Origin: Tolypothrix sp. VBCCA 56010
Lineage (GTDB): Bacteria > Cyanobacteriota > Cyanobacteriia > Cyanobacteriales > Nostocaceae
Direction: 5' to 3'
Assembly: GCF_050875635.1 (NCBI RefSeq)
Contig: NZ_JBPAOH010000006.1
Location: 49,729 to 113,728, forward strand
Length of the DNA: 64,000 nucleotides
Shown here: one piece after another, positions 2,645-56,651 of the stretch
How the letters are laid out: every line of letters starts with the position of its first letter
Numbering within the stretch: the stretch's first letter is position 1
Position numbers and translations under genes: made by a program
The notes under the pieces: model-generated
Database searches by the model: none
Told to the model about the DNA's origin: nothing
What the model saw: only the letters and a program-made list of their open reading frames with translations

Positions 2645-4723
2645 GTGGCACGTACGATCCCACTAGAGAAAGTACGCAACATTGGGATTGCGGCGCATAT
2701 AGATGCGGGCAAGACAACAACAACAGAGAGAATATTATTTTACTCTGGCATTATTCACAAAATCGGTGAAGTCCACGAGGGAACAGCCGTAACAGACTGG
2801 ATGGAACAAGAGCGGGAGCGGGGAATTACCATCACTGCCGCTGCGATTACAACCAGTTGGAAAGATCATCAAATTAACATTATCGATACACCGGGTCACG
2901 TTGACTTCACGATTGAAGTTGAACGTTCGATGCGGGTGTTGGATGGTGTAATTGCAGTATTTTGTTCAGTGGGCGGCGTGCAACCGCAGTCAGAGACAGT
3001 GTGGCGGCAAGCAGACCGTTACAAAGTGCCTCGGATCGCCTTTATTAACAAAATGGATCGCACAGGGGCGAACTTTTATCGAGTTCACGATCAGATGCGC
3101 GATCGCCTGCGGGCAAATGCGATCGCCATTCAGCTGCCCATCGGTGCCGAAAACGACTTCAAAGGCATTGTTGACTTAGTGCAGATGCGTGCATACATCT
3201 ACAACAATGACCAGGGAACAGATATCCAAGAAACGGATATCCCCGCCGACATGCAAGAAAAAGCGGAAGAATACCGCGTCAAGTTAGTAGAAGCAGTGTC
3301 AGAAACCGATGACGATCTGATGACCAAGTACTTCGAGGGCGAAGAACTAACAACAGAAGAAATCAGTACTGCTCTGCGTAAAGGCACCATTGCAGGTACG
3401 ATTGTCCCAGTACTATGCGGTTCCGCCTTTAAAAATAAAGGCGTGCAATTGATGTTAGATGCAGTTGTAGATTACCTGCCAGCACCAACTGAAGTACCGC
3501 CAATTCAAGGCACGCTGCTGAATGGTGATACCGTTGAGCGTCGCGCTGATGACAACGAACCTCTATCGGCTTTGGCATTCAAAATTATGGCTGACCCTTA
3601 CGGTCGCCTTACCTTTGTCCGTGTTTATTCTGGGGTTCTCAAAAAGGGTAGCTACGTCCTCAACGCCACCAAGAATAAAAAAGAGCGGATTTCCCGTTTG
3701 GTGGTTTTGAAAGCAGATGAGCGGCAAGATGTCGAGGAACTGCGTGCAGGTGATTTAGGAGCCGCGTTGGGATTAAAAGATACCTTGACAGGTGACACCC
3801 TTTGTGATGACGGCTCACCAGTTATTCTGGAATCGCTGTTTATTCCTGAACCTGTCATCTCGGTAGCGGTTGAACCCAAAACCAAGAACGACATGGATAA
3901 ATTATCCAAGGCGTTGCAATCACTTTCGGAAGAAGACCCCACCTTCCGTGTCAGTGTTGACCAAGAAACAAACCAAACCGTGATTGCAGGGATGGGAGAG
4001 TTACACCTAGAAATTCTTGTAGACCGCATGTTGCGAGAATTTAAGGTAGAAGCGAATGTTGGTGCGCCACAAGTAGCTTACCGCGAAACCATTCGTAAAG
4101 GTGTCAACAGAGTAGAAGGCAAATTTATCCGTCAGAGTGGTGGTAAAGGTCAATACGGTCATGTTGTCATCAATTTAGAACCCGGAGAACCAGGAACTGG
4201 CTTTGAATTTGTTTCCAAGATTGTCGGTGGTATCGTACCGAAAGAGTACATCGGACCTGCCGAACAAGGAATGAAAGAAAGCTGTGAAAGCGGTGTTCTC
4301 GCTGGATATCCATTAATTGATGTCAAAGCAACGTTGGTTGATGGTTCTTACCACGATGTAGACTCGTCGGAAATGGCTTTCAAAATCGCTGGCTCAATGG
4401 CGATGAAAGAGGCTGTCATGAAAGCCTCACCTGTCCTGTTAGAGCCTATGATGAAAGTTGAGGTAGAAGTTCCCGAAAACTTCCTTGGAGATGTTATGGG
4501 CGACCTCAATTCCCGTCGTGGGCAAATTGAGGGGATGGGATCTGAGCAGGGAATTGCCAAAGTAACTGCTAAAGTACCATTGGCAGAAATGTTTGGCTAC
4601 GCTACTGACATCCGGTCTAAAACCCAAGGTCGGGGCATCTTCTCAATGGAGTTTAGCAACTACGACGAAGTGCCTCGTAACGTGGCAGAGGCAATCATTG
4701 CTAAAAGCAAAGGGAACGCTTAA
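2645..4723 (+). CDS. fusA: Elongation factor G (GTG start)
   Basis: 692 aa with the G-domain motifs AHIDAGKTT and DTPGHVDF and full EF-G length. It sits in str operon order. Confidence 0.97.
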
Positions 4724-4746
4724 TTAGATAAAGGAAACGAGGATTA

Positions 4747-5976
4747 ATGGCACGCGCAAAGTTTGAAAGGAATAAACCCCACATAAATATCGGTACTGTT
4801 GGGCACGTTGACCACGGTAAAACTACTTTAACAGCAGCTATCACGATGACCTTAGCTGCTTTGGGTCAAGCTGTGGCTAAGGGTTACGATCAAATCGATA
4901 ACGCACCCGAAGAAAAGGCACGGGGTATTACAATTAATACCGCTCACGTTGAGTACGAAACCGAAAATCGTCACTATGCTCACGTAGACTGTCCCGGACA
5001 CGCTGACTATGTGAAGAACATGATCACCGGTGCAGCACAAATGGATGGAGGCATCCTTGTAGTAGCTGCTACCGATGGTCCCATGCCCCAAACTCGCGAA
5101 CACATTTTGTTAGCAAAGCAGGTGGGTGTACCCAGCTTGGTTGTCTTCTTGAACAAAGAAGACTTGATGGATGACCCAGAACTATTGGAACTAGTAGAAC
5201 TAGAACTGAGAGAATTGCTTTCTAGCTACGATTTCCCTGGTGACGACATCCCCATTATCAAAGGTTCTGGTCTGCAAGCTCTGGAAGCTATGACCAAGAA
5301 TCCTAAGACCCAACGCGGTGAAAATGAGTGGGTAGATAAAATCTATGAGTTGATGGACTCTGTAGATTCGTTTATCCCCACTCCTGAGCGAGATGTCGAT
5401 AAGCCTTTCTTAATGGCGATTGAAGACGTATTCTCCATCACAGGTCGTGGTACTGTTGCCACAGGTCGGATTGAGCGGGGTATAGTCAAAGTAGGCGATA
5501 ACGTTGAACTAGTGGGTATCAGAAACACTCGCGCCACTACCGTAACTGGTATTGAGATGTTCAAGAAGAGTCTTGACCAGGGTATGGCTGGGGATAACGC
5601 CGGTGTACTATTGCGCGGTATTCAGAAAACTGATATTGAACGCGGTATGGTGCTAGCAAAACCCGGTTCGATTACTCCCCACACCCAATTTGAAGGTGAA
5701 GTGTACGTGCTGACAGAAAAAGAAGGTGGTCGCAAGACTCCATTTTTCTCTGGCTATCGTCCTCAGTTTTATGTGCGGACAACAGACGTAACAGGCACGA
5801 TTACAGCATTCACTTCCGATGATGGCAAAGAGGCAGAAATGGTGATGCCTGGAGACCGGATTAAAATGAGTGTGGAATTAATCAACCCGATCGCTATTGA
5901 ACAAGGTATGCGCTTCGCTATTCGTGAAGGTGGTCGCACCATCGGTGCGGGTGTCGTATCCAAAATCCTGAAGTAA
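4747..5976 (+). CDS. tuf: Elongation factor Tu
   Basis: 409 aa with [18 protein letters not shown] and NKED motifs. It lies 24 bp downstream of fusA. Confidence 0.97.
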
Positions 5977-6483: not shown

Positions 6484-6586
6484 TGGATAGTGGGGCATGG
6501 GGCATAGGGCATGGGGCATAGGGCATGGAAAAAATCTCCCATTGCCCATTGCCCATTGCCCATTGCCCATTGCCCAACATCCTTAG
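6484..6586. repeat. Heptamer arrays: GGGGCAT/GGGCATA (five units) facing CCCATTG (five units)
   Basis: Read directly from the sequence. The arrays start immediately after the rpsJ stop. Confidence 0.8.
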
Positions 6587-10695: not shown

Positions 10696-12828
10696 TTAGG
10701 CATCAAGATCCATAGAACCCCGACGGCGACGACGACGTTTGTCAACAGGGGGGCTGTTAGCTTCAGTTTCATCGACAATCGCGGCAAAACCCGATGGTTG
10801 AGTTACATTCTCAGTAAACAATTCCGGTTGTGGTTGTGGTTCTGGTTGTGGTTGTGGTTCTACTTTTGGCTCAACCTTCTTAATTGGAGTTAGTCCAATA
10901 TTTACTCTTTCGGGAATATTTACTCTTTCCGGAGCAGTTGATTCGGAAGTACTTACTCTTTCGGGAGTGCTGACTTCTGAGGTAAATTCAGGCGGTGTAG
11001 TTGGAGTTTGTCCTGGTGGAGTGACGTTAATAATCACAGACTTGGGATTTTTGACTTCCCGATTCAAGCGCACCAAAGGAGAAATTCCCATTAAAGCGAA
11101 AACATCCTGCTCTTGTGGTGTCATTTCTACAGAAACAATTTCCGGTGGTTCTACCACTGGTTTAACTGGCTCTGCCTTAGTAATTTTTATCCGCTCTGTT
11201 CTATCAGTCCAAGGAGCTTTGTTAATACTGGGTAAGGATATTTCTGGAGTTCCTGGTGGTTCCGGTTCGCTATCAATTTCTAAGTCTGGGTCGTTGACAA
11301 AAGACAGCGGATTGGCGATAACTCGTGGCTCTTCTTTGCCGTTGCCTCCATTTATACTAATTCGACGACGCCTGCGAACACCACCACCACGCTTGTTATC
11401 TCCTATCTCTTGATAGCTGGGATGATTTAGATTCATCGGATTCAATTCCGAGTCAGTATCTAATCCTTCATTAAATCCTTCATAGCTTTCCCGTCGTTCT
11501 GTTATGCTGGTTGCTGGTAAACGCGGTTCTCTATGCGGCATAGATACAAAACGCTCTGGTAATTCTGCTGGTGTTGGTAATCTGTTTTCAGTTTCTCCCG
11601 GCAGATGTATTATATGCCCTAAACCGCCACAGGTAGGACAAGTTTGACCAAACAATTCGTAGATGTTTTGCCCTTGACGTTTGCGGGTAAGTTCTACTAA
11701 GCCTAGTTCGGTTAGTTGAGCAATTTGAGGACGAGCTTTGTCTGCTTTGAGAGCTTTGTTAAAATGTTCTAAGACTTGCAATTGATCGCGGCGCGATTCC
11801 ATATCGATAAAATCGACGACTATCACCCCAGCAACATTTCGCAGACGTAGCTGGCGAGCAATTTCGGTTGCGGCTTCGCAGTTCGTCCACAAAACGGTTT
11901 CTCTAGCTGTTGCCGATCGCGTAAATGAACCTGAGTTGACATCTATCACCGTTAATGCTTCGGTTGGCTCGATGATGATGTAACCTCCAGAAGGCAAATC
12001 TACTCTTGGTTTGAGTGCTTCGCGAATTGCGGCATTAATCCGGAAGTATTCTAATATTCCAGAGCGATCGCGGTGATGGTCAATCAACAATCCTTGTGGT
12101 GTCTGCCCACCACTCCAATTTTGCAAGTACTGCTTTACTCGCTTCAAACCAGTACTCGAATCTACCACAATCCGATTGACATCCGCGCCATACATATCTC
12201 GCAGCACGCGCTGAATAAAATCATCGTCTCGATTCAGTAGTGCTGGTGCGCGGGTAGATTGAGCTTCTTGTTGAATTGCTTCCCACTGCTTTTGCAGCAC
12301 TTCTAAATCTTCGATAATCGCTTCTTCTGGCTTGCCTTCGGCTTCGGTGCGAACTAACAAACCCATTCCGGCAGGTTTAATCAAAATCGCCAGTGCCCGC
12401 AAGCGGTTGCGCTCGCTTTCACTTTTAATCCGACGGGATAAATTTACGCCTCGTCCATAAGGCATCAGCACTACATACCGTCCGGGCATGGTGATATTAC
12501 CTGTGAGCCTCGGTCCTTTAGTACCTGTTGGCTCTTTCATTACTTGCACTAACACTTTTTGCTGCGGTGTCAGTAGTTCTGTAATTGCCGCTGCGGTACG
12601 CTTCAGCTTTAATGGTCCTAAATCTGTTACATGAATAAAGCCGTTTCGCTCTGGATCTCCTATATTAACAAAAGCCGCATCTATCCCAGGTAATACATTT
12701 TCTACGACCCCTAAATAAATATCACCTATTTGGTGATGACCGGTGGCTACTACTAGTTCTTGTATTTGATCTTCGGAAAATACCGCAGCAATCTGATGCT
12801 GTTCCGCGATTATAATTTGTTTTGGCAT
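10696..12828 (-). CDS. rne: Ribonuclease E
   Basis: 710 aa. It has an N-terminal S1/catalytic core and the CPTCGG zinc link. The C-terminal tail carries PQPQPEPQPQPE repeats and an Arg-rich RRRRRRGS end, which is the cyanobacterial PNPase-binding motif. Confidence 0.92.
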   Translation of the reverse strand: MPKQIIIAEQHQIAAVFSEDQIQELVVATGHHQIGDIYLGVVENVLPGIDAAFVNIGDPERNGFIHVTDLGPLKLKRTAAAITELLTPQQKVLVQVMKEPTGTKGPRLTGNITMPGRYVVLMPYGRGVNLSRRIKSESERNRLRALAILIKPAGMGLLVRTEAEGKPEEAIIEDLEVLQKQWEAIQQEAQSTRAPALLNRDDDFIQRVLRDMYGADVNRIVVDSSTGLKRVKQYLQNWSGGQTPQGLLIDHHRDRSGILEYFRINAAIREALKPRVDLPSGGYIIIEPTEALTVIDVNSGSFTRSATARETVLWTNCEAATEIARQLRLRNVAGVIVVDFIDMESRRDQLQVLEHFNKALKADKARPQIAQLTELGLVELTRKRQGQNIYELFGQTCPTCGGLGHIIHLPGETENRLPTPAELPERFVSMPHREPRLPATSITERRESYEGFNEGLDTDSELNPMNLNHPSYQEIGDNKRGGGVRRRRRISINGGNGKEEPRVIANPLSFVNDPDLEIDSEPEPPGTPEISLPSINKAPWTDRTERIKITKAEPVKPVVEPPEIVSVEMTPQEQDVFALMGISPLVRLNREVKNPKSVIINVTPPGQTPTTPPEFTSEVSTPERVSTSESTAPERVNIPERVNIGLTPIKKVEPKVEPQPQPEPQPQPELFTENVTQPSGFAAIVDETEANSPPVDKRRRRRRGSMDLDA

Positions 12829-13384: not shown

Positions 13385-16102
13385 TTATACTCCCAGAATT
13401 AGTCGATTTCGGTGGATGTGCAGCAATTGAAATTCTACATTCGCCACTTGTTCTAGCATAAACAGGATTTGTTCAGGACGCAACAGCGTACCATCATTCC
13501 GACAGCTACCCACATAACGCAGGATACCTGTAGATTCTGCGAGTTGCGTTTTAGTTTCTAATAATTCTATATCGAATAGGCGATCGCGCAGATTTATCAC
13601 ATGAGTCTTGCCTGACTTAGTTTTTTGCTCGTACCAAATCTCATCTGTTGTTTTGATTGTATCAATTGATTCTTGCCATTTGGCCGATGGCATCTCTTCC
13701 AATGCAGCCACGGTAATCAAATACTCCGCAGCCTCCAAAAGTTGGGTAGCAGCACTTGCTTTTAAATCTAGTTCTTCCACATTATATATTGGTATGTCTG
13801 TGGGTAAAGCATCAGCTAACTGTTGGCGGAAAGCCTCTACTTCAACTACTTGATTTAACTCAAAATCGACAATTTCACCACTACTGCTAGCTCCCAATGC
13901 CAAGGCATTTGCTAAAGAAATGCGTGGCATCGGATGAAAACCACCAGTAAAAGAAATCGGCAATCCCGCACGTCGCAAGGCTCTATCAAACAAACGAAGT
14001 AAATCCAAGTGACTTACTAAAGCCATATCACCCTGCTTGCCAAACCGAACCCGCAGCCGTTGTGCCTTAGTGGTGTTGGGAACAAACTCCCCAGCAAATT
14101 CCGGGATTTGCAGTGGAGCTATTACAATATTATGTCCGAAATCGGTGCCGCAAACACCACAATGAGAACAACCATCAAAAGAACAGTCAGGGACGGTTGC
14201 TGCTGACAAAGCGCGTTGCAAATCTTCCTTCAGCCACTTTTTGTCAATTCCCGTGTCGATGTGGTCCCAAGGTAGGGGGGTGTCGAGGGAGTGGGGGAGG
14301 GGGAGAGGGGGGGAGGGGGGGGACAAGGGAGACAAGGGAGAGGGGGGAGATGAGGGAGATGAGGAAGCAGATTCTCCCTTGTCCTCCTTGTCCTCCAAGG
14401 AGTCCCCCTTGTCCTCCTTGTCCTCCAAGGAGTCCCCAAACAAATTCCATTCGCCATTTTCGATTTGGCGGTATTTCCAATTTAGACCGACTTGGGCGAT
14501 CGCAATTCCCCAAGCTTGATAAGCTTGCTCTACATTGTCATACCAGGAATCCATTCCTGCACCCAATTCCCAAGCACGACGCACTACTTTGGATAAAGTG
14601 CGATCGCCTCGTCCAATAAAGTCCTCCATTGCCGAAATTCGCACATCGGTGAAGTTCACCTTTACTGCTTTCATTCGGCGAAATTCTTGGCGTAGTAAAT
14701 TTTGCTTGCGCTTAAATTCAGCAGTAGAAACTGAATGCCATTGAAACGGCGTATGCGGCTTAGGGGTAAAGTTAGAAATTGTCAAGTTAAAATTTAAAGT
14801 TTTTCTCCCCTTAGCCCAACATTCTCGCTTTAGCCAGCTTACTGTTTCCGCTATGCCTATAACATCGGCATCGGTTTCACCCGGTAAGCCAATCATAAAG
14901 TATAACTTGATTTTATCCCAACCTTGCTCGCTCGCTGTTTTTACACCGCGCAGCAATTCTTCATTTGTCAAACCTTTATTTACAATATCCCGCATTCGCT
15001 GGGTTCCCGCTTCTGGGGCAAAGGTTAGACCACCTTGGCGGGTACCACCTAAGATGTTGGCGATATTTTCATCAAATCTGTCTACTCGTTGACTTGGTAG
15101 AGTTAAAGAAATATTCTCATTTTTTAAACGGTTTTTGATTTCCATCCCTACTGCTGGCAGGGACAAATAATCGGAACAACTCAAGGATAAAAGAGAAAAC
15201 TCATTATAACCAGTTTCCCGCATTCCCTTGGTTATTGCTTCTACCACTTTTTCTGGTTCTACATCCCGTGCTGGTCGGGTAAGCATTCCGGGTTGACAAA
15301 AGCGACAACCGCGAGTACAACCGCGCCGAATTTCAATTGTTAGGCGATCGTGTACTGTTTCCATATAAGGAACCAGCCCGGTAGAATATGCGGGTATGGG
15401 AGTCGCTACTCTTCGCAAAATTCGTTTTGGCACATCTGGGCGCGAAGGATGAACTGAGCCATCCTCTGCCATATTGTAAAATTGGGGTACGTATACGCCA
15501 GGTATCTGCGCCAAGTCTAGCAATAACTCTTGTCGGCTTAAGCCAGATGCTTTACCTTCTGCCAACACCAAGTTAATTTCTGGTAGTAATTCCTCGCCAT
15601 CGCCCAGGGCAATAAAATCGAAGAAATCGGCGTAAGGTTCCGGATTCGATGTTGCCGTTTGTCCCCCGGCGAAAATTAAAGGATAATTTCCCTCTAATCT
15701 TTCAAGCCATGTGAGGGGAATCCCAGCCAAATCCAACATTTCTAGGATATTGGTTGCACCCAGTTCATAACTGAGGCTAAAACCAAGAATGTCGAATTCA
15801 GTTAGCGATCGCTTTGATTCTACTGCAAACAGCGGTGTATGCGTTGCCCGTAGTTTAGCTGCCAGGTCTGGTGCTGGTAGGTAAGCGCGATCGCATAACG
15901 AGCGCGGCTGGGCATTCAAAATGTTATAGAGAATGATATGCCCTAAGTTAGATGCGCCGACTTCATATACTTCTGGATAAGTTAATACCCAACGTGTTGT
16001 CGCCGTATCCCAAGGTTTATGTACTGCACCCAGTTCGTTACCGAGATAACGAGCTGGCTTTAAAATATCCGATGTAATTAAATTTTCAACTGGAACAGCC
16101 AC
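13385..16102 (-). CDS. Fused radical SAM/B12-binding protein (TIGR03960-like) with a C-terminal DUF2344-like domain; carries an in-frame low-complexity insertion
   Basis: 905 aa. It has a CxxxCxxC-type radical SAM region (CTRGCRFC) and a C-terminal domain (LVSHLDLLRLFDRALRRAG) resembling DUF2344. The linker DSLEDKEDKGDSLEDKEDKG...SPPSPLSPLSPPSPP is encoded by a G-rich repeat element. Confidence 0.8.
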   Translation of the reverse strand: MAVPVENLITSDILKPARYLGNELGAVHKPWDTATTRWVLTYPEVYEVGASNLGHIILYNILNAQPRSLCDRAYLPAPDLAAKLRATHTPLFAVESKRSLTEFDILGFSLSYELGATNILEMLDLAGIPLTWLERLEGNYPLIFAGGQTATSNPEPYADFFDFIALGDGEELLPEINLVLAEGKASGLSRQELLLDLAQIPGVYVPQFYNMAEDGSVHPSRPDVPKRILRRVATPIPAYSTGLVPYMETVHDRLTIEIRRGCTRGCRFCQPGMLTRPARDVEPEKVVEAITKGMRETGYNEFSLLSLSCSDYLSLPAVGMEIKNRLKNENISLTLPSQRVDRFDENIANILGGTRQGGLTFAPEAGTQRMRDIVNKGLTNEELLRGVKTASEQGWDKIKLYFMIGLPGETDADVIGIAETVSWLKRECWAKGRKTLNFNLTISNFTPKPHTPFQWHSVSTAEFKRKQNLLRQEFRRMKAVKVNFTDVRISAMEDFIGRGDRTLSKVVRRAWELGAGMDSWYDNVEQAYQAWGIAIAQVGLNWKYRQIENGEWNLFGDSLEDKEDKGDSLEDKEDKGESASSSPSSPPSPLSPLSPPSPPLPLPHSLDTPLPWDHIDTGIDKKWLKEDLQRALSAATVPDCSFDGCSHCGVCGTDFGHNIVIAPLQIPEFAGEFVPNTTKAQRLRVRFGKQGDMALVSHLDLLRLFDRALRRAGLPISFTGGFHPMPRISLANALALGASSSGEIVDFELNQVVEVEAFRQQLADALPTDIPIYNVEELDLKASAATQLLEAAEYLITVAALEEMPSAKWQESIDTIKTTDEIWYEQKTKSGKTHVINLRDRLFDIELLETKTQLAESTGILRYVGSCRNDGTLLRPEQILFMLEQVANVEFQLLHIHRNRLILGV
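14272..14447. repeat. G-rich/C-rich palindromic repeat element (GGGGAGn, GACAAGG units) lying inside the radical SAM coding sequence
   Basis: It belongs to the same family as the elements at 25493, 30277 and 49287. The reading frame is maintained through it. Confidence 0.75.
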
Positions 16103-25492: not shown

Positions 25493-25621
25493 AGGGGACA
25501 AGGAGACAAGGAGACAAGGGGACAGGGGGACAGGGGGACAGGGGGAGTTTGTCTTTTCGTCTTCCTTGTCTCCCCCCTCTCCCCCATCCCCCCATCCCCC
25601 CCTCTCCCCCTCTCCCCCTCT
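25493..25621. repeat. G-rich (GGGGACAAGGAGACAAGG...) / C-rich palindromic repeat element in the convergent intergenic region
   Basis: The two arms are reverse-complementary and fill the gap between the GTPase stop and the multicopper oxidase stop. Confidence 0.75.
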
Positions 25622-25624
25622 TTT

Positions 25625-27142
25625 TCATAACGCTGGTGCTGGAAGTGGTTTTGCTGGTGCTGACAGCGGATCTATCCCATTTTGCGCGACTTCAAACTGA
25701 CTCATCATGTCGTGGTCTTCGTGAACCATGTTATGGCAGTGGTACATGTACTTGCCTATGTTTGGTCTAAACTTGCCAATTATTCTTACCGTTTCGTTTT
25801 CACCAACGTAGAAGACATCTTTCATACCACGTTCATAAGCGAAAGGTGGCTGACCGTTACGGTCAAGAATTTGAGCATCAATTAGGTGAAGGTGAACCGG
25901 ATGAAACCAAAGACCGGAGTTGTTATGCAGTGTCCAAATCTCGATTTGTTCTAATTGGGGATTGGCATCAACTCGGTTTATGTCCCAAACATTGCCGTTG
26001 ATTACCCACAATCGATTACTTTGCTCAAATGTAAAGTCACGCGATCGCACTGCTGAAGATTCTGGGAAAAATTCAATATTGCGTAACGTGCTAGGAATGA
26101 AACTGTTATCGCTCTCTTCACGTACCACATCAAAGCGCATAATCTTATTGGTATCCCCAGTATTATCATTGTTGGGAAGTCCCAAATTTTGCAATACTAC
26201 CTGGGTTCCTATCGGATATTTAGAAAAATCGATTATCAAATCGTAGCGCTCTGCCATCCCGATACGCATCTCTTTGGTATTTACTGGTGCAGGCTTTAAC
26301 CCCGCATCAGTACCGATCGCAATCAAGTCGTCACCCGTACTCAGAGCAAGTTTGTAAGAGCGGGAAATTGATGCGTTTAACACCCGGAAGCGGTACTTGC
26401 GGTTTGCTACCTCCATCCGGGGATAAGGTACACCGTTAACTGTAATCACATCCCCCATCAAACTGTGTTCGGCTTGGTCATCAAAAATTAACGAACCATC
26501 AGCCGCGAATTTTTTATCATGAATGATTAAGGGAATATCATAATCATCCTTGGGAAGTGGCAGATTAAGTTCATTTTCATCTTCGACAATATACATTCCC
26601 ACCAGCCCCATGTACACGTTTCGTGAAGTTTGATGAACTGCGTGGTCGTGATACCACATAGTGGCGGCGTTGATGTTGGGATAGATATAGTCCTTGTAGT
26701 ATCCTTGAGGAATTAAATCTTCTGCGTAGCCATCGTACTGCGGTAGCGATGCCATCCCATGCAGATGAACCACGGTAGGTGTATTAACATCGTTGATAAA
26801 GCGTACAACTGAGGAGCGATTTTTACGTTGTTTAATTGTCGGACCCGGAAATGTACCGTTATAGCCCCAAATTTCTGTCGTTCGCCCTGGTAATATTTCT
26901 ACAATAGCTTTCTGTATTGTTATCTGGTAATAATCAGTTGTGGAATCGCTACGTACAGGATTTAACACTGGTGGGGTGCGAAAGGCAAGTGTAAACGGCT
27001 CGACTTTCTCATCGGTTCTCTGAGCATATCCTCGATGCGGAAAGATTACGGGTAGCAATATAGAACCACCCGCGAAAGCTGCAAACATCAAGGCTTCACG
27101 TCTGCTGATTTTATTCATGGTAGTGTCCCCTGTCTCAAACAC
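25625..27142 (-). CDS. Multicopper oxidase with a Tat signal (true start probably at the internal Met, MNKISRREALMF)
   Basis: It has copper-binding motifs HLHG, WYHDH, HPVHLH and HCHNMVHEDHDMM. The twin-arginine motif is SRREALMFAAFAG. Confidence 0.88.
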   Translation of the reverse strand: MFETGDTTMNKISRREALMFAAFAGGSILLPVIFPHRGYAQRTDEKVEPFTLAFRTPPVLNPVRSDSTTDYYQITIQKAIVEILPGRTTEIWGYNGTFPGPTIKQRKNRSSVVRFINDVNTPTVVHLHGMASLPQYDGYAEDLIPQGYYKDYIYPNINAATMWYHDHAVHQTSRNVYMGLVGMYIVEDENELNLPLPKDDYDIPLIIHDKKFAADGSLIFDDQAEHSLMGDVITVNGVPYPRMEVANRKYRFRVLNASISRSYKLALSTGDDLIAIGTDAGLKPAPVNTKEMRIGMAERYDLIIDFSKYPIGTQVVLQNLGLPNNDNTGDTNKIMRFDVVREESDNSFIPSTLRNIEFFPESSAVRSRDFTFEQSNRLWVINGNVWDINRVDANPQLEQIEIWTLHNNSGLWFHPVHLHLIDAQILDRNGQPPFAYERGMKDVFYVGENETVRIIGKFRPNIGKYMYHCHNMVHEDHDMMSQFEVAQNGIDPLSAPAKPLPAPAL

Positions 27143-27417: not shown

Positions 27418-27690
27418 CTACGAAGATCGCTCTTAAAACTCGGAACTTCGTGTTCGGAACTCGGAACTTCGTGTTCAGAACTCGGAACTTCGTGTTCGGA
27501 ACTCGGAATGTCGTGTTCGGAACTCGGAATGTCGTGTTCAGAACTCGGAACTTCGTGTTCCGAACTCGGAATGTCGTGTTCAGAACTCGAAAGTTCGTGT
27601 TCCGAACTTGAAACTTCGTGTTCCGAACTCGGAACTTCGTGTTCAGAACTCGAAAGTTCGTGCTTTGAACTCCAAATGTCAAGTTCTAAA
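27418..27690. repeat. Tandem array of about 13 copies of a 21-bp unit (GAACTCGGAACTTCGTGTTCG and variants)
   Basis: Directly visible. The units are contiguous with no unique spacers, and each contains an internal imperfect palindrome. Confidence 0.9.
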
Positions 27691-29811: not shown

Positions 29812-30267
29812 ATGTCTTCTGTTTTTGAACAATCAATTCAAATTAATGCTACAGCGACGGTGGTTGAGAGATGTATTACTGATTTAACTCTCATGCACCG
29901 TTGGCTTAATCCTGCCCTGCGTTGCGAACCTGTGGGGGAAACTTGGAGTAGCGATAATGGTAGTAAAAGCAAGTTTGTGATTCAAATACCGATAATAAAA
30001 CCGACATTAAATAGCACAGTTGTCGAAAGACAACCGGGTTTGGTAGTGTGGGAGTTTGACGGTTTTTTCACCGGACGCGATCGCTGGGAATGTCAACCAG
30101 TCGAACAAGGAACGCGTCTAGTTAACCGCTTTGAATTTGAGATTCCCAACCCGATAATTAGCTGGGGCTTCAAAACTTTCGCCGAACCCTGGACAAAAAA
30201 AGACATGCAAGAACAACTGCAACGACTTAAAAGAGTCGCGCAAGAAGTACAGCAAGGCTTTCGGTAA
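29812..30267 (+). CDS. SRPBCC (START/Bet v1-like, polyketide cyclase-like) family protein
   Basis: 151 aa. The size and secondary-structure pattern fit the family, but I see no catalytic motif. Confidence 0.55.
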   Translation: MSSVFEQSIQINATATVVERCITDLTLMHRWLNPALRCEPVGETWSSDNGSKSKFVIQIPIIKPTLNSTVVERQPGLVVWEFDGFFTGRDRWECQPVEQGTRLVNRFEFEIPNPIISWGFKTFAEPWTKKDMQEQLQRLKRVAQEVQQGFR

Positions 30268-30276
30268 GAGTAGAAA

Positions 30277-30441
30277 GTGGGGAGATGAGGGAATGGGGGG
30301 AGTGGGGGAGTGGGGGAGTGGGGGATGGAAAGACAAGGGGACAAAAAGACTTGGAGACAAAAAGACTTGGAGAATAATTCTTCTTTCCCCCTATCCCCCA
30401 TCTCAAGAACTCTCCCCACTCCCCCACTCCCCCACTCTCCC
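30277..30441. repeat. G-rich (GGGGAGT x4) / C-rich (CCCCACT x3) palindromic repeat element
   Basis: It belongs to the same family as 25493 and 49287 and abuts the stop of the minus-strand gene at 30442. Confidence 0.75.
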
Positions 30442-33399: not shown

Positions 33400-33552
33400 T
33401 AATGGGGCATGGGGCATGGGGCATGGGGCATGGGGGAGGCAGTGCGTTGGAAAGGCTAGAAGCGACAGTCACGCATGTGGCATCATGGGGCATCGAAAGA
33501 ATCTCTTATTCCCCTTGCCCAATGCCCATTGCCCATTGCCCATTGCCCAATT
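33400..33552. repeat. Heptamer arrays GGGGCAT x5 and CCCATTG x4 flanking a 75-bp core between atpD and atpC
   Basis: Read directly from the sequence. Confidence 0.8.
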
Positions 33553-36573: not shown

Positions 36574-38331
36574 TTGAAGGGTATTTTGAGTTTTTTACAA
36601 GAACGTTACCGTTTACTTAAGTTGATAAGTCAAGGGGAATTTTACAAGGTTTTTCTTGCCGTGGATGAAAGTCGATTTCCTGTAGTTCGTTGTGTGGTTG
36701 AAGAATTCTCGCTGCAAATTGTCGGTTTTGAGCGAAGAAGGCAACTTTTAGAAGAAATTGGTAAGCATCCGCAAATTCCCGCAATTATAGCATATTTTCA
36801 GCAGGAAGGGTATTTTTATTTGGTACAGGAGTTTATTGAGGGTAGCAATTTAGCTGAGGTGCTTGAGGATGAGGGTGTTTTTAGTGAAAGTCAGATTTGG
36901 CAACTTTTAGAAAATTTGTTGCCTGTTCTCAAGTTTATTAGCGATCGCCATATCATTCACGGCAATATTAAACCCGAAAATATCATCCGCACAAAAGCGG
37001 GGGATTTGGTTTTAGTCAATTTTGCTACAGCTAAATTTGTGCCGAAAATCGACTTTTTTACAGAGCATGGCAATATCGGCAGTCCAGAGTATGCGGCTCC
37101 TGAGCAAATTAAGGGTAAATGCGTGTTTGCAAGTGACCTTTATAGCTTAGGTGTAACTTGCATTTACTTGCTTACGCATATTCCGCCGTTTGATTTATTT
37201 GATGTCGCTAATAATTGCTGGGCTTGGCGAGATTATCTTACCACCAAAGTAAGCGATCGCTTGGCGAAAATCCTTGACAAGTTGCTGTCCAACGCTGTTA
37301 ACCGTCGCTTTCAAAATGCTGACGAAGTTATGGAAGCAATGGGTATTAAATCCCCACTCGAAAATCTCCAATCCAAAATCTCCAATCCAAAATCCAAAAT
37401 CCAAAATCCTCCGTGGCAATGTTTGCACACTTTGACTGGATATGATGTATTAAGTAATGTAAATTCAATTGCGATTAGCCCTGATGGTAATATTTTGGCT
37501 AGTGGCAATGATGACAAAAGCATTATATTCTGGGATTTAAATACATTTGAAGCGATCGCCAATCTTGGGGGACATTCCCAAGCAGTAACATCAGTTGCTT
37601 TCAATTACGATGGAAAGCTTTTGGCGACAGGTAGCGATGATAAAACTATCAAAATTTGGGATGTTCGCAACTTCCAAGAGATTTTCACGTTAAGAGGACA
37701 TTCCCACGCTGTTAAATCAGTTGCCTTTAGCCCAGATGGAAAGCTGCTAGCTAGTGGTAGCTGGGATAAAACAGTCAAAATCTGGGATGTTTATTCTGGC
37801 GAAGAAATTTGCACTTTGACTGGACATAAATTACAGATCGGTGCAGTTGCGTTTAGTCCGCAATCAAAGCTTTTGGCAAGTGCTAGTTTTGACAGAACTA
37901 TTCGCTTGTGGAAGTTGTCTGCTGAATTGCAAAATGAATTGAAAAACCGCCCTTATCAAACACTTATAGGTCATGCAAGAGCGGTTTTAACAGTCGCTTT
38001 CAGTCCGGATGGTCAAATTTTGGCGACGGGTAGCGATGATAACACTATTAAATTGTGGGAGGTGAACACTGGTAAGTTAATTCGTACACTTTCCAGTCAT
38101 TCCTGGTCGGTGGTGACACTAGCTTTCAGTGCCGATGGGGAAACATTGATTAGTGGAAGTTGGGACAAGACGATTAAGCTTTCTGGGGTAAACACAACAG
38201 CAGAAATTGCTACTTTATCTGGTCATGTAGACTCAGTGTTTACCGTTGCTGTCAGCCCTGTTGCACTGATTGCTAGTGGCAGCAGGGACAAGACAATCAA
38301 ACTTTGGCAGCTTGTATCGCAATCAACTTAA
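36574..38331 (+). CDS. Ser/Thr protein kinase fused to a WD40 repeat domain
   Basis: 585 aa. It has Hanks kinase motifs (HGNIKPENII, DLYSLG) followed by multiple WD repeats (GHS...WD). Confidence 0.85.
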   Translation: MKGILSFLQERYRLLKLISQGEFYKVFLAVDESRFPVVRCVVEEFSLQIVGFERRRQLLEEIGKHPQIPAIIAYFQQEGYFYLVQEFIEGSNLAEVLEDEGVFSESQIWQLLENLLPVLKFISDRHIIHGNIKPENIIRTKAGDLVLVNFATAKFVPKIDFFTEHGNIGSPEYAAPEQIKGKCVFASDLYSLGVTCIYLLTHIPPFDLFDVANNCWAWRDYLTTKVSDRLAKILDKLLSNAVNRRFQNADEVMEAMGIKSPLENLQSKISNPKSKIQNPPWQCLHTLTGYDVLSNVNSIAISPDGNILASGNDDKSIIFWDLNTFEAIANLGGHSQAVTSVAFNYDGKLLATGSDDKTIKIWDVRNFQEIFTLRGHSHAVKSVAFSPDGKLLASGSWDKTVKIWDVYSGEEICTLTGHKLQIGAVAFSPQSKLLASASFDRTIRLWKLSAELQNELKNRPYQTLIGHARAVLTVAFSPDGQILATGSDDNTIKLWEVNTGKLIRTLSSHSWSVVTLAFSADGETLISGSWDKTIKLSGVNTTAEIATLSGHVDSVFTVAVSPVALIASGSRDKTIKLWQLVSQST

Positions 38332-49286: not shown

Positions 49287-49414
49287 CGGGGAGGGGAGGA
49301 GTGGGGGAGGGGGAGAGGGGGGAGACAAGGGAGACAAGGGAGATGGGGGAGACAAGGAAGACAAAAAGACAAACTCCCCCTTGTCCTCCTTGTCCTCCTT
49401 GTCCTCCTTGTCCC
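49287..49414. repeat. G-rich (GGGGAGG, GAGACAAGG) / C-rich (CCTTGTCCTCCTTGTCC) palindromic repeat element
   Basis: It belongs to the same family as 14272, 25493 and 30277 and lies directly 3' of ruvB. Confidence 0.75.
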
Positions 49415-56538: not shown

Positions 56539-56651
56539 TAGGGTGCGTTGCGCGACAACATACGTTGAATTTAATATGGTGCGTTGCGCTGCGCGACAAC
56601 ATACGTTGAATTTAATATGGTGCGTTGCGCTGCGCGACAACACACCCTACG
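56539..56651. repeat. MITE-like element (termini TAGGGTGCGTT...ACACCCTACG) containing about 2.5 tandem copies of a 37-41-bp unit (GGTGCGTTGCGCTGCGCGACAACATACGTTGAATTTAATAT)
   Basis: Read directly from the sequence. It sits in the 350-bp gap between the BrxD-like and coiled-coil genes. Confidence 0.6.

Follow-up and report, generated by a model that had tools for sequence, protein, structure and literature searches.

How can an array of inverted, G/C-rich repeats stand in the reading frame of a conserved enzyme gene, and did it have a part in assembling that gene from two? This question is raised by a 64-kb stretch of the genome of the cyanobacterium Tolypothrix sp. VBCCA 56010 (hereafter the window), in which an open reading frame (ORF) of 905 aa, 13385..16102 on the minus strand, encodes a B12-binding radical-SAM protein of the TIGR03960 family fused to a TIGR03936/DUF2344 domain, and carries a repeat element in its C-terminal half. 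A first-pass annotation had placed this element between the two domains and had seen in it either a disordered linker created by a repeat-driven fusion or a sign of two genes wrongly joined by an assembly or frameshift problem. Our analysis leads to a different answer: very probably, the segment is a tolerated loop, disordered and derived from repeats by slippage, that sits in the C-terminal part of the radical-SAM module, and the protein itself is an old fusion.

The element and its reading frame

Translation confirms that the ORF stays open across 14272-14447, the extent first given to the element, and the peptides read from it were also correctly assigned: the repeat-derived segment is GDSLEDKEDKGDSLEDKEDKG-ESASSS-PSSPPSPLSPLSPPSPPLPLP, aa 556-603. 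It is palindromic and repetitive beyond chance. Tandem Repeats Finder (TRF) detects a 30-nt unit present 2.1 times at 100% identity (score 124), 9-nt units in both arms, and periods of 8, 9 and 30 nt within 14285-14437; inverted repeats reach 24 nt with 88% complementarity. There is thus a repeat at 14272-14447, but its core is narrower, covering only 14294-14437, with conserved codons rather than repeat on either side.

On the mRNA the core has the order purine arm, spacer, pyrimidine arm. The purine-rich arm (14375..14437, minus strand; C-rich on the plus strand) consists of two exact 30-nt units made of GGAGGACAA 9-mers and codes (GDSLEDKEDK)x2 plus G. The 18-nt spacer at the hairpin apex, GAATCTGCTTCCTCATCT (14357..14374, minus), codes ESASSS, and the pyrimidine-rich arm (14294..14356, minus), with runs of 6, 7, 8 and 6 G on the plus strand, codes PSSPPSPLSPLSPPSPPLPLP. 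Upstream in the protein lies the conserved 5' flank ENGEWNLF (aa 548-555; 14438..14461, minus), which is kept in nearly all of the 120 best homologs, a few having ENGEYNLF, NVF or NLS. Downstream, homolog and ortholog comparison delimits a conserved 3' flank coding HSLDTPLPWDHIDTG (14249..14293, minus), whose first codons (CCCCACTCCCTCGAC) resemble heptamer units; in Nostoc, CCCCACT arrays grow outward from these codons.

The repeats are nearly devoid of stop codons: five of the six frames are stop-free in the coding copy, including all three on the coding strand, and all six are stop-free in the intergenic copies at 25493 and 49288. Any copy with a length divisible by three should therefore leave the frame open.

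The insert lies within the radical-SAM module of an anciently fused protein

Pfam finds Radical_SAM_N2 at aa 54-206, Radical_SAM at aa 257-419 and DUF2344 at aa 682-875 of the ORF product. For these narrow matches the statement that the insert lies exactly between the radical-SAM and DUF2344 domains holds, but not for the NCBIfam model TIGR03960 (580 bits against a cut-off of 462), which matches in two stretches and spans the insert. The first stretch, aa 11-544, covers profile positions 5-546 of 605, and the insert interrupts the C-terminal part of the module about 50 aa upstream of its end. TIGR03936 follows at aa 682-901 (213 bits against a cut-off of 72), so that both models exceed their curated cut-offs within a single polypeptide. 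Downstream of the insert, PLPWDHIDTGIDKKWL...DCSFDGCSHCGVCG is conserved throughout the protein family, with the cysteine motif DCSFDGCSHCGVCG (aa 639-652; 14147..14188, minus) at the C-terminal end of the radical-SAM module. The LPWDHI...DCxxxxCxxCGxC block is present even in a stand-alone 623-aa radical-SAM homolog (P0194) lacking the DUF2344 domain, which places the insert within the radical-SAM module. The true inter-domain linker is the segment of aa ~653-681 (14060..14146, minus), between the cysteine motif and the start of DUF2344/TIGR03936.

The fused architecture itself is widespread. It occurs in all of the 120 best homologs (869-957 aa), and nearly all of the 150 best representatives of 50%-identity clusters, which share 35-45% identity, are likewise fused and of 820-1000 aa. 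A profile search names fused proteins from KSB1, Bacillota, Desulfuromonadales, Nitrospirota, Latescibacteria and others, and none of the distant representatives aligned, themselves fused, has an insert at the loop site. Judged from these homologs, the radical-SAM/DUF2344 fusion is ancient, spans many phyla and was not driven by the repeat. We accordingly give practically no credence to the proposal that the insert created, or bridges, a junction between two once-separate genes: by Pfam matches alone it does fall between Radical_SAM and DUF2344, but the fused architecture exists without it across many phyla, it is off the junction and inside the two-stretch TIGR03960 match, radical-SAM-module sequence shared with P0194 follows it, and the real linker is ordered and conserved.

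This order is predicted by AlphaFold. A model built with a 133-sequence alignment, which replaced one from a shallow alignment of 29 Nostocales sequences with a predicted local distance difference test score (pLDDT) of only 41, has a mean pLDDT of 88.9 and a predicted template-modelling score (pTM) of 0.89. In it residues 548-603 are the sole stretch with pLDDT below 50, whereas the true linker, which is conserved, scores 83-92. The part of the first-pass annotation that had the protein tolerating a repeat-derived disordered segment is thus borne out by the model.

Length and sequence of the loop across orthologs

Loop length was taken as the number of residues separating the conserved W in ENGEW from the PW in LPWD. 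Of 139 distant fused representatives, about 120 have a loop of exactly 10 residues by this measure (median 10); other cyanobacterial representatives have 27-37, the minimal Nostoc form has 30 and Tolypothrix sp. VBCCA 56010 has 59. The family's fixed 10-residue turn is therefore lengthened in cyanobacteria, and in Nostocales, where its variability is extreme, it consists of the simple repeats also found in the intergenic DNA.

The extent of this variation is apparent from a survey of the loop site in 80 orthologous genomic loci plus the window, all 81 from Nostocales, which yielded 79 distinct loop sequences. Their cores measure 60-228 nt, all multiples of three, with peaks at 63, 84 and 105 nt; the spacing of these peaks is 21 nt, i.e. 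three heptamers. CCCCACT arrays, extending from the conserved edge ACTCCCCACTCCCTCGA and coding peptides such as PHSPLPT and TPNSPLP, occupy 55 of the 81 loci. In one locus (L027) the loop is built from a different inverted heptamer pair (GGGCAAT... / CCCAATG...), and the loops of the Tolypothrix clade are built of purine and pyrimidine arms.

Within that clade, the arm-spacer-arm layout and the spacer sequence are common to the Tolypothrix, Hassallia and T. brevis orthologs, while the copy number of the units differs. Even the closest relative, T. carrinoi (best tblastn segment 96% identical; orthologs 92-96% overall), has GAGGACAAG (EDK) repeated about seven times in place of the 30-nt duplication (GDSLEDKEDK)x2 of the window. 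Reading through with different in-frame repeat numbers is the rule, seen in 21 of 24 proteins from Tolypothrix, Hassallia, Scytonema and Spirirestis, and their loops (27-54 aa from NLF to PLPWD) differ between nearly all species. Units of 8 nt make the peptide cycle through all three frames, e.g. GDKETRRQ in L002, so the amino-acid sequence is a by-product of the DNA repeat.

A second kind of sequence is found in the same place. An 18-nt palindrome, GACGCGATTAATCGCGTC, is present in 20 of the 81 loci (L003, L014-L016, L022, L028, L029, L037, L038, L041, L044, L048, L049, L055, L061, L064, L069, L070, L072 and L075), in most of them at about position 5750-5820, and is read in two frames (QTRLIAS, TDAINRVS). 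Exact copies number 25 in the 843 kb that the orthologous loci cover, 24 of them in the loop and sometimes two to a loop; in the window it was not found. It resembles a small mobile element with heptamer arrays as its target.

A model for loop growth

These observations are combined in the following model. The purine/pyrimidine arrays, and a seed resembling a heptamer (CCCCACTCCC) at the loop's 3' edge, would grow and shrink by slipped-strand mispairing, to which exchange with other genomic repeat copies may contribute, and small palindromic elements would at times insert into the arrays. Selection would remove only those variants with a length not divisible by three: it could filter for frame alone, because the repeats lack stop codons in almost every frame. 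The loop peptide, with its acidic EDK-type arm and its Pro/Ser-rich arm, would then be a mere read-out of the DNA repeat that needs no function of its own.

Several points weigh against so neutral a picture. The neutrality of the loop is something we infer, and the extended loop persists across all Nostocales, so that its length or flexibility may be useful. The purine-first polarity is widespread, purines making up a median fraction of 0.67 of the 5' half and 0.34 of the 3' half, and could be the trace of some constraint. Lastly, one frameshifted ortholog (L081, described below) leaves room for a switching role.

Alternative explanations

One alternative is that the element acts as nucleic acid, an mRNA hairpin or a template-strand G-quadruplex modulating translation, transcription or RNase processing of an operon that runs into rne. 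In absolute terms the 196-nt mRNA segment folds into a very stable hairpin, at -77 kcal/mol, a regular-expression search, which indicates folding potential only, finds a G-quadruplex-type motif on the plus (template) strand at 14275-14356, G-rich heptamer repeats of Nostoc form G-quadruplexes in vitro (PMC4692102), and rne (10696..12828, minus) lies directly downstream of the element-bearing gene. Yet the fold is no better than that of dinucleotide shuffles of the same composition (z = -1.1). Across the 81 orthologs the median z is -1.2, strong folding being confined to loops that contain inverted arrays or the 18-nt palindrome; most loops do not fold, and those of minimal Nostoc hardly do. 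Neither the insert nor the intergenic copy at 25493 gave a match in a promoter/terminator scan, and the terminator-like sites at 13900-14800, three in number, all fall outside 14272-14447; an Rfam scan with permissive E-values gave no family at threshold, only sub-threshold look-alikes of microRNA precursor hairpins. A conserved RNA hairpin was considered on its own and rejected on the ortholog values. We conclude that the potential to form a hairpin or a G-quadruplex comes with the repeat and is no conserved feature of the gene, and we regard a functional nucleic-acid structure as very unlikely.

The homopolymers invite two further readings, namely that the locus is a contingency locus or that its sequence in the window is wrong. 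Under the former, the G/C tracts of 7-8 nt would slip often and switch the product back and forth from the full-length enzyme to a shortened radical-SAM protein, DUF2344 being translated separately or not at all. The coding copy has the four G runs noted above, relatives have C runs of 7-8, the element is open in all three coding-strand frames, and in L081 (JGI metagenome 3300059095, contig Ga0573900_001, 5.73 Mb) a 1-nt shift in a C-run of the loop (region 4600-4960), inside CCCCCCCC-T-CCCCCCC, has caused the ortholog to be called as a 627-aa radical-SAM gene and a 278-aa DUF2344 gene. This shift is either a sequencing error or real slippage, i.e. phase variation. Against a contingency locus, L081 is the only shifted member among 24 of the clade, and homopolymer indels are a typical assembly error. 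Two more entries, P0273 and P0278, are truncated in or just after the element by their protein calls, but one (P0273) is annotated as partial, and the other comes from a short contig of 6.9 kb, where its sequence becomes unrelated. Long homopolymers are absent from the Nostoc orthologs. Moreover, a break at the L081 site would sever the LPWDH...CxxCGxC block from the radical-SAM core, which no natural two-gene arrangement does, and the split is therefore unlikely to be a functional state. A contingency locus is thus very unlikely, and it is highly unlikely that the homopolymers brought in by the repeat form a reversible switch in the Tolypothrix clade, a 1-nt slip splitting the fused radical-SAM/pseudouridine-synthase-like enzyme into two polypeptides. 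Were this so, a free-living multicellular cyanobacterium would keep a presumed RNA-modifying activity, whose gene lies just upstream of that for RNase E, under phase-variable control. As for an error in the window, where a G-run indel would conceal two separate ORFs, homopolymers are prone to it and the L081 assembly, split at the same spot, shows that the worry was not baseless. For this window, however, the two-gene interpretation finds no support: the conserved sequences on both sides of the element share one frame, 21 independent relatives among the 24 keep it, and AlphaFold folds the product as one compact protein (pTM as above), which leaves an artefact a very slim chance. The database entry with 100% identity to the ORF product (P0001, Tolypothrix sp. 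VBCCA 56010, annotated as 'TIGR03960 family B12-binding radical SAM protein') comes from one contig, most likely of the same assembly, and gives no independent support.

The tolerated, slippage-driven loop thus remains our preferred reading. It reveals no new mechanism and no fusion event, but it has value for annotation: the full-length fused call in the window is right, while split or 'partial' calls in Tolypothrix, Scytonema and Hassallia are suspect, as the site breaks or frameshifts the assemblies of relatives. It also provides a natural example of stop-free purine/pyrimidine repeats colonising a permissive enzyme loop, in which a 10-residue turn has become a disordered segment of 30-76 residues, made of repeats and different in almost every species.

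The host protein and its neighbour

Foldseek searches with the AlphaFold model match the DUF2344 part to the pseudouridine synthases Pus1, TruA, Pus3 and Cbf5, with E-values down to 3e-8, and the N-terminal part to B12-dependent radical-SAM methylases and MiaB. The DUF2344/TIGR03936 domain (aa 682-905; 13388..14059, minus), delimited by Pfam, NCBIfam and structure, thus has a predicted pseudouridine-synthase-like fold; Pfam places DUF2344 in the pseudouridine-synthase clan (PMC7955657). These structural matches to pseudouridine synthases and methylases, together with rne immediately downstream, suggest that the protein is a putative RNA-modifying enzyme. A sequence search of solved structures with the ORF product returned only a generic match to the radical-SAM core, and a literature search found no functional study of TIGR03960, TIGR03936 or DUF2344.

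The neighbouring RNase E has repeats of its own. Its C-terminal tail (10822-10933) contains in-frame tandem repeats of 6 and 18 nt (GGTTGT type, coding PQPQPE), a region that is probably disordered.

Related copies and other repeats in the window

Three further elements with a G-arm/C-arm structure are present in the window. The closest sibling of the coding copy (49288..49413) is flanked by two minus-strand ORFs, the upstream of which has its stop codon right at the element; the other two are repeat hairpins between convergent ORFs, one with 8-nt units (25493..25621) and one with 8- and 16-nt units that takes up the whole gap (30279..30441). The first-pass annotation had listed the copies at 25493, 30277 and 49287 as intergenic members of one family with the coding copy. 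All three are intergenic, abut stop codons and are related to the coding copy, which is collinear with 49289-49398 (110 nt, 82.7% identity, E 1e-24 within the window) and shares repeat units alone with the copies at 25493 and 30277. The intergenic elements fill their entire gaps and begin right after the stop codons at 25625, at 30267 and 30442, and at 49414; it looks as if the arrays expand up to coding sequence.

We considered whether the element might be a miniature inverted-repeat transposable element (MITE). Its arms are inverted, with no flanking direct repeat reported, and its best sibling reaches 82.7% identity over those 110 nt; no target-site duplication was seen, the insert is inherited within the clade, and a MITE is not the reading we favour.

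The window as a whole is rich in simple arrays, mostly of 7-nt units in inverted pairs, and contains, besides the four G-arm/C-arm copies, at least five other inverted heptamer arrays, a density that fits the repeat-rich genomes of heterocystous cyanobacteria. Only two of all these lie in long ORFs, the radical-SAM copy and an array at 37348-37409. The latter, of 7/14-nt units (AAATCCCCAATCCA type), is inside ORF 36574..38331 (plus) and codes KSPLENLQSKISNPKSKIQNP, the linker between the Ser/Thr-kinase-like N-terminal half and the WD40-type repeats of a 585-aa protein. Inverted heptamer pairs (TGGGGCA / CCCATTG and similar) are found at 6491-6576, 33402-33549 and 921-1111, and a pair of this TGGGGCA/CCCATTG type is what fills the radical-SAM loop in frame in L027 (GIGQGASG...FPMPNAQ). 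Longer tandem arrays outside long ORFs, at 27437-27662 and 56544-56642, have a 21-nt unit repeated 10.8 times (89%) and a 41-nt unit repeated 2.4 times (98%).

Comparison with known repeat systems

Simple-sequence contingency loci, as in Haemophilus and Neisseria, bring about phase variation by homopolymer slippage and typically concern surface structures. The locus resembles them in that G/C homopolymers of 7-8 nt lie within an ORF and that one relative is frameshifted there, but differs in that the gene encodes a housekeeping-type enzyme rather than a surface structure and most relatives are in frame.

Closer parallels exist among the repeats of cyanobacteria, of which two named classes come nearest, the short tandemly repeated repetitive (STRR) sequences and, in Nostoc, the small dispersed repeats. 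The latter are very small mobile elements reportedly described by Elhai et al. in 2008 (Genome Res). The GACGCGATTAATCGCGTC palindrome, which sits within heptamer arrays in 20 of the 81 loci but is absent from the window, may be akin to them. STRR sequences are said to have been described by Mazel et al. in 1990 as heptamer repeats of heterocystous cyanobacteria. As in STRR, the units are short, G/C-rich and tandem, with many dispersed and mainly intergenic copies in the genome of a heterocystous (Nostocales) host, 7-nt arrays, often as inverted pairs, occur in the same window, and the loop site itself holds true CCCCACT heptamers in the Nostoc orthologs. Unlike STRR, the element does not have 7-nt units but units of 8, 9 and 30 nt; its arrays form a purine arm and a pyrimidine arm around a spacer, and it lies inside a conserved enzyme gene.

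A further comparison is offered by the GGGGA(C/T)T arrays of Nostoc sp. PCC 7120 (Rehm et al. 2015, PMC4692102). Of 89 such arrays 32% are intragenic and few form inverted pairs, and in vitro the G-rich repeats fold into G-quadruplexes. The present element likewise has G-tract repeats of variable copy number, found near stop codons when intergenic but with intragenic copies too, and has G-quadruplex potential, the regular-expression match at 14275-14356 (plus) containing at least four G-tracts able to form such a structure. Its units, however, are GGGAGGGG and GGGAGACAA in inverted arms instead of tandem GGGGAYT: GGGGACT occurs twice on the coding strand, 30 nt apart, where at least two tandem units are called for. 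Intragenic G-rich heptamer repeats are already on record in Nostoc PCC 7120, and the novelty of the locus is low. By its sequence the element may be called STRR-like, rather than STRR, because it departs from both the strict heptamer and the tandem-GGGGAYT definitions.

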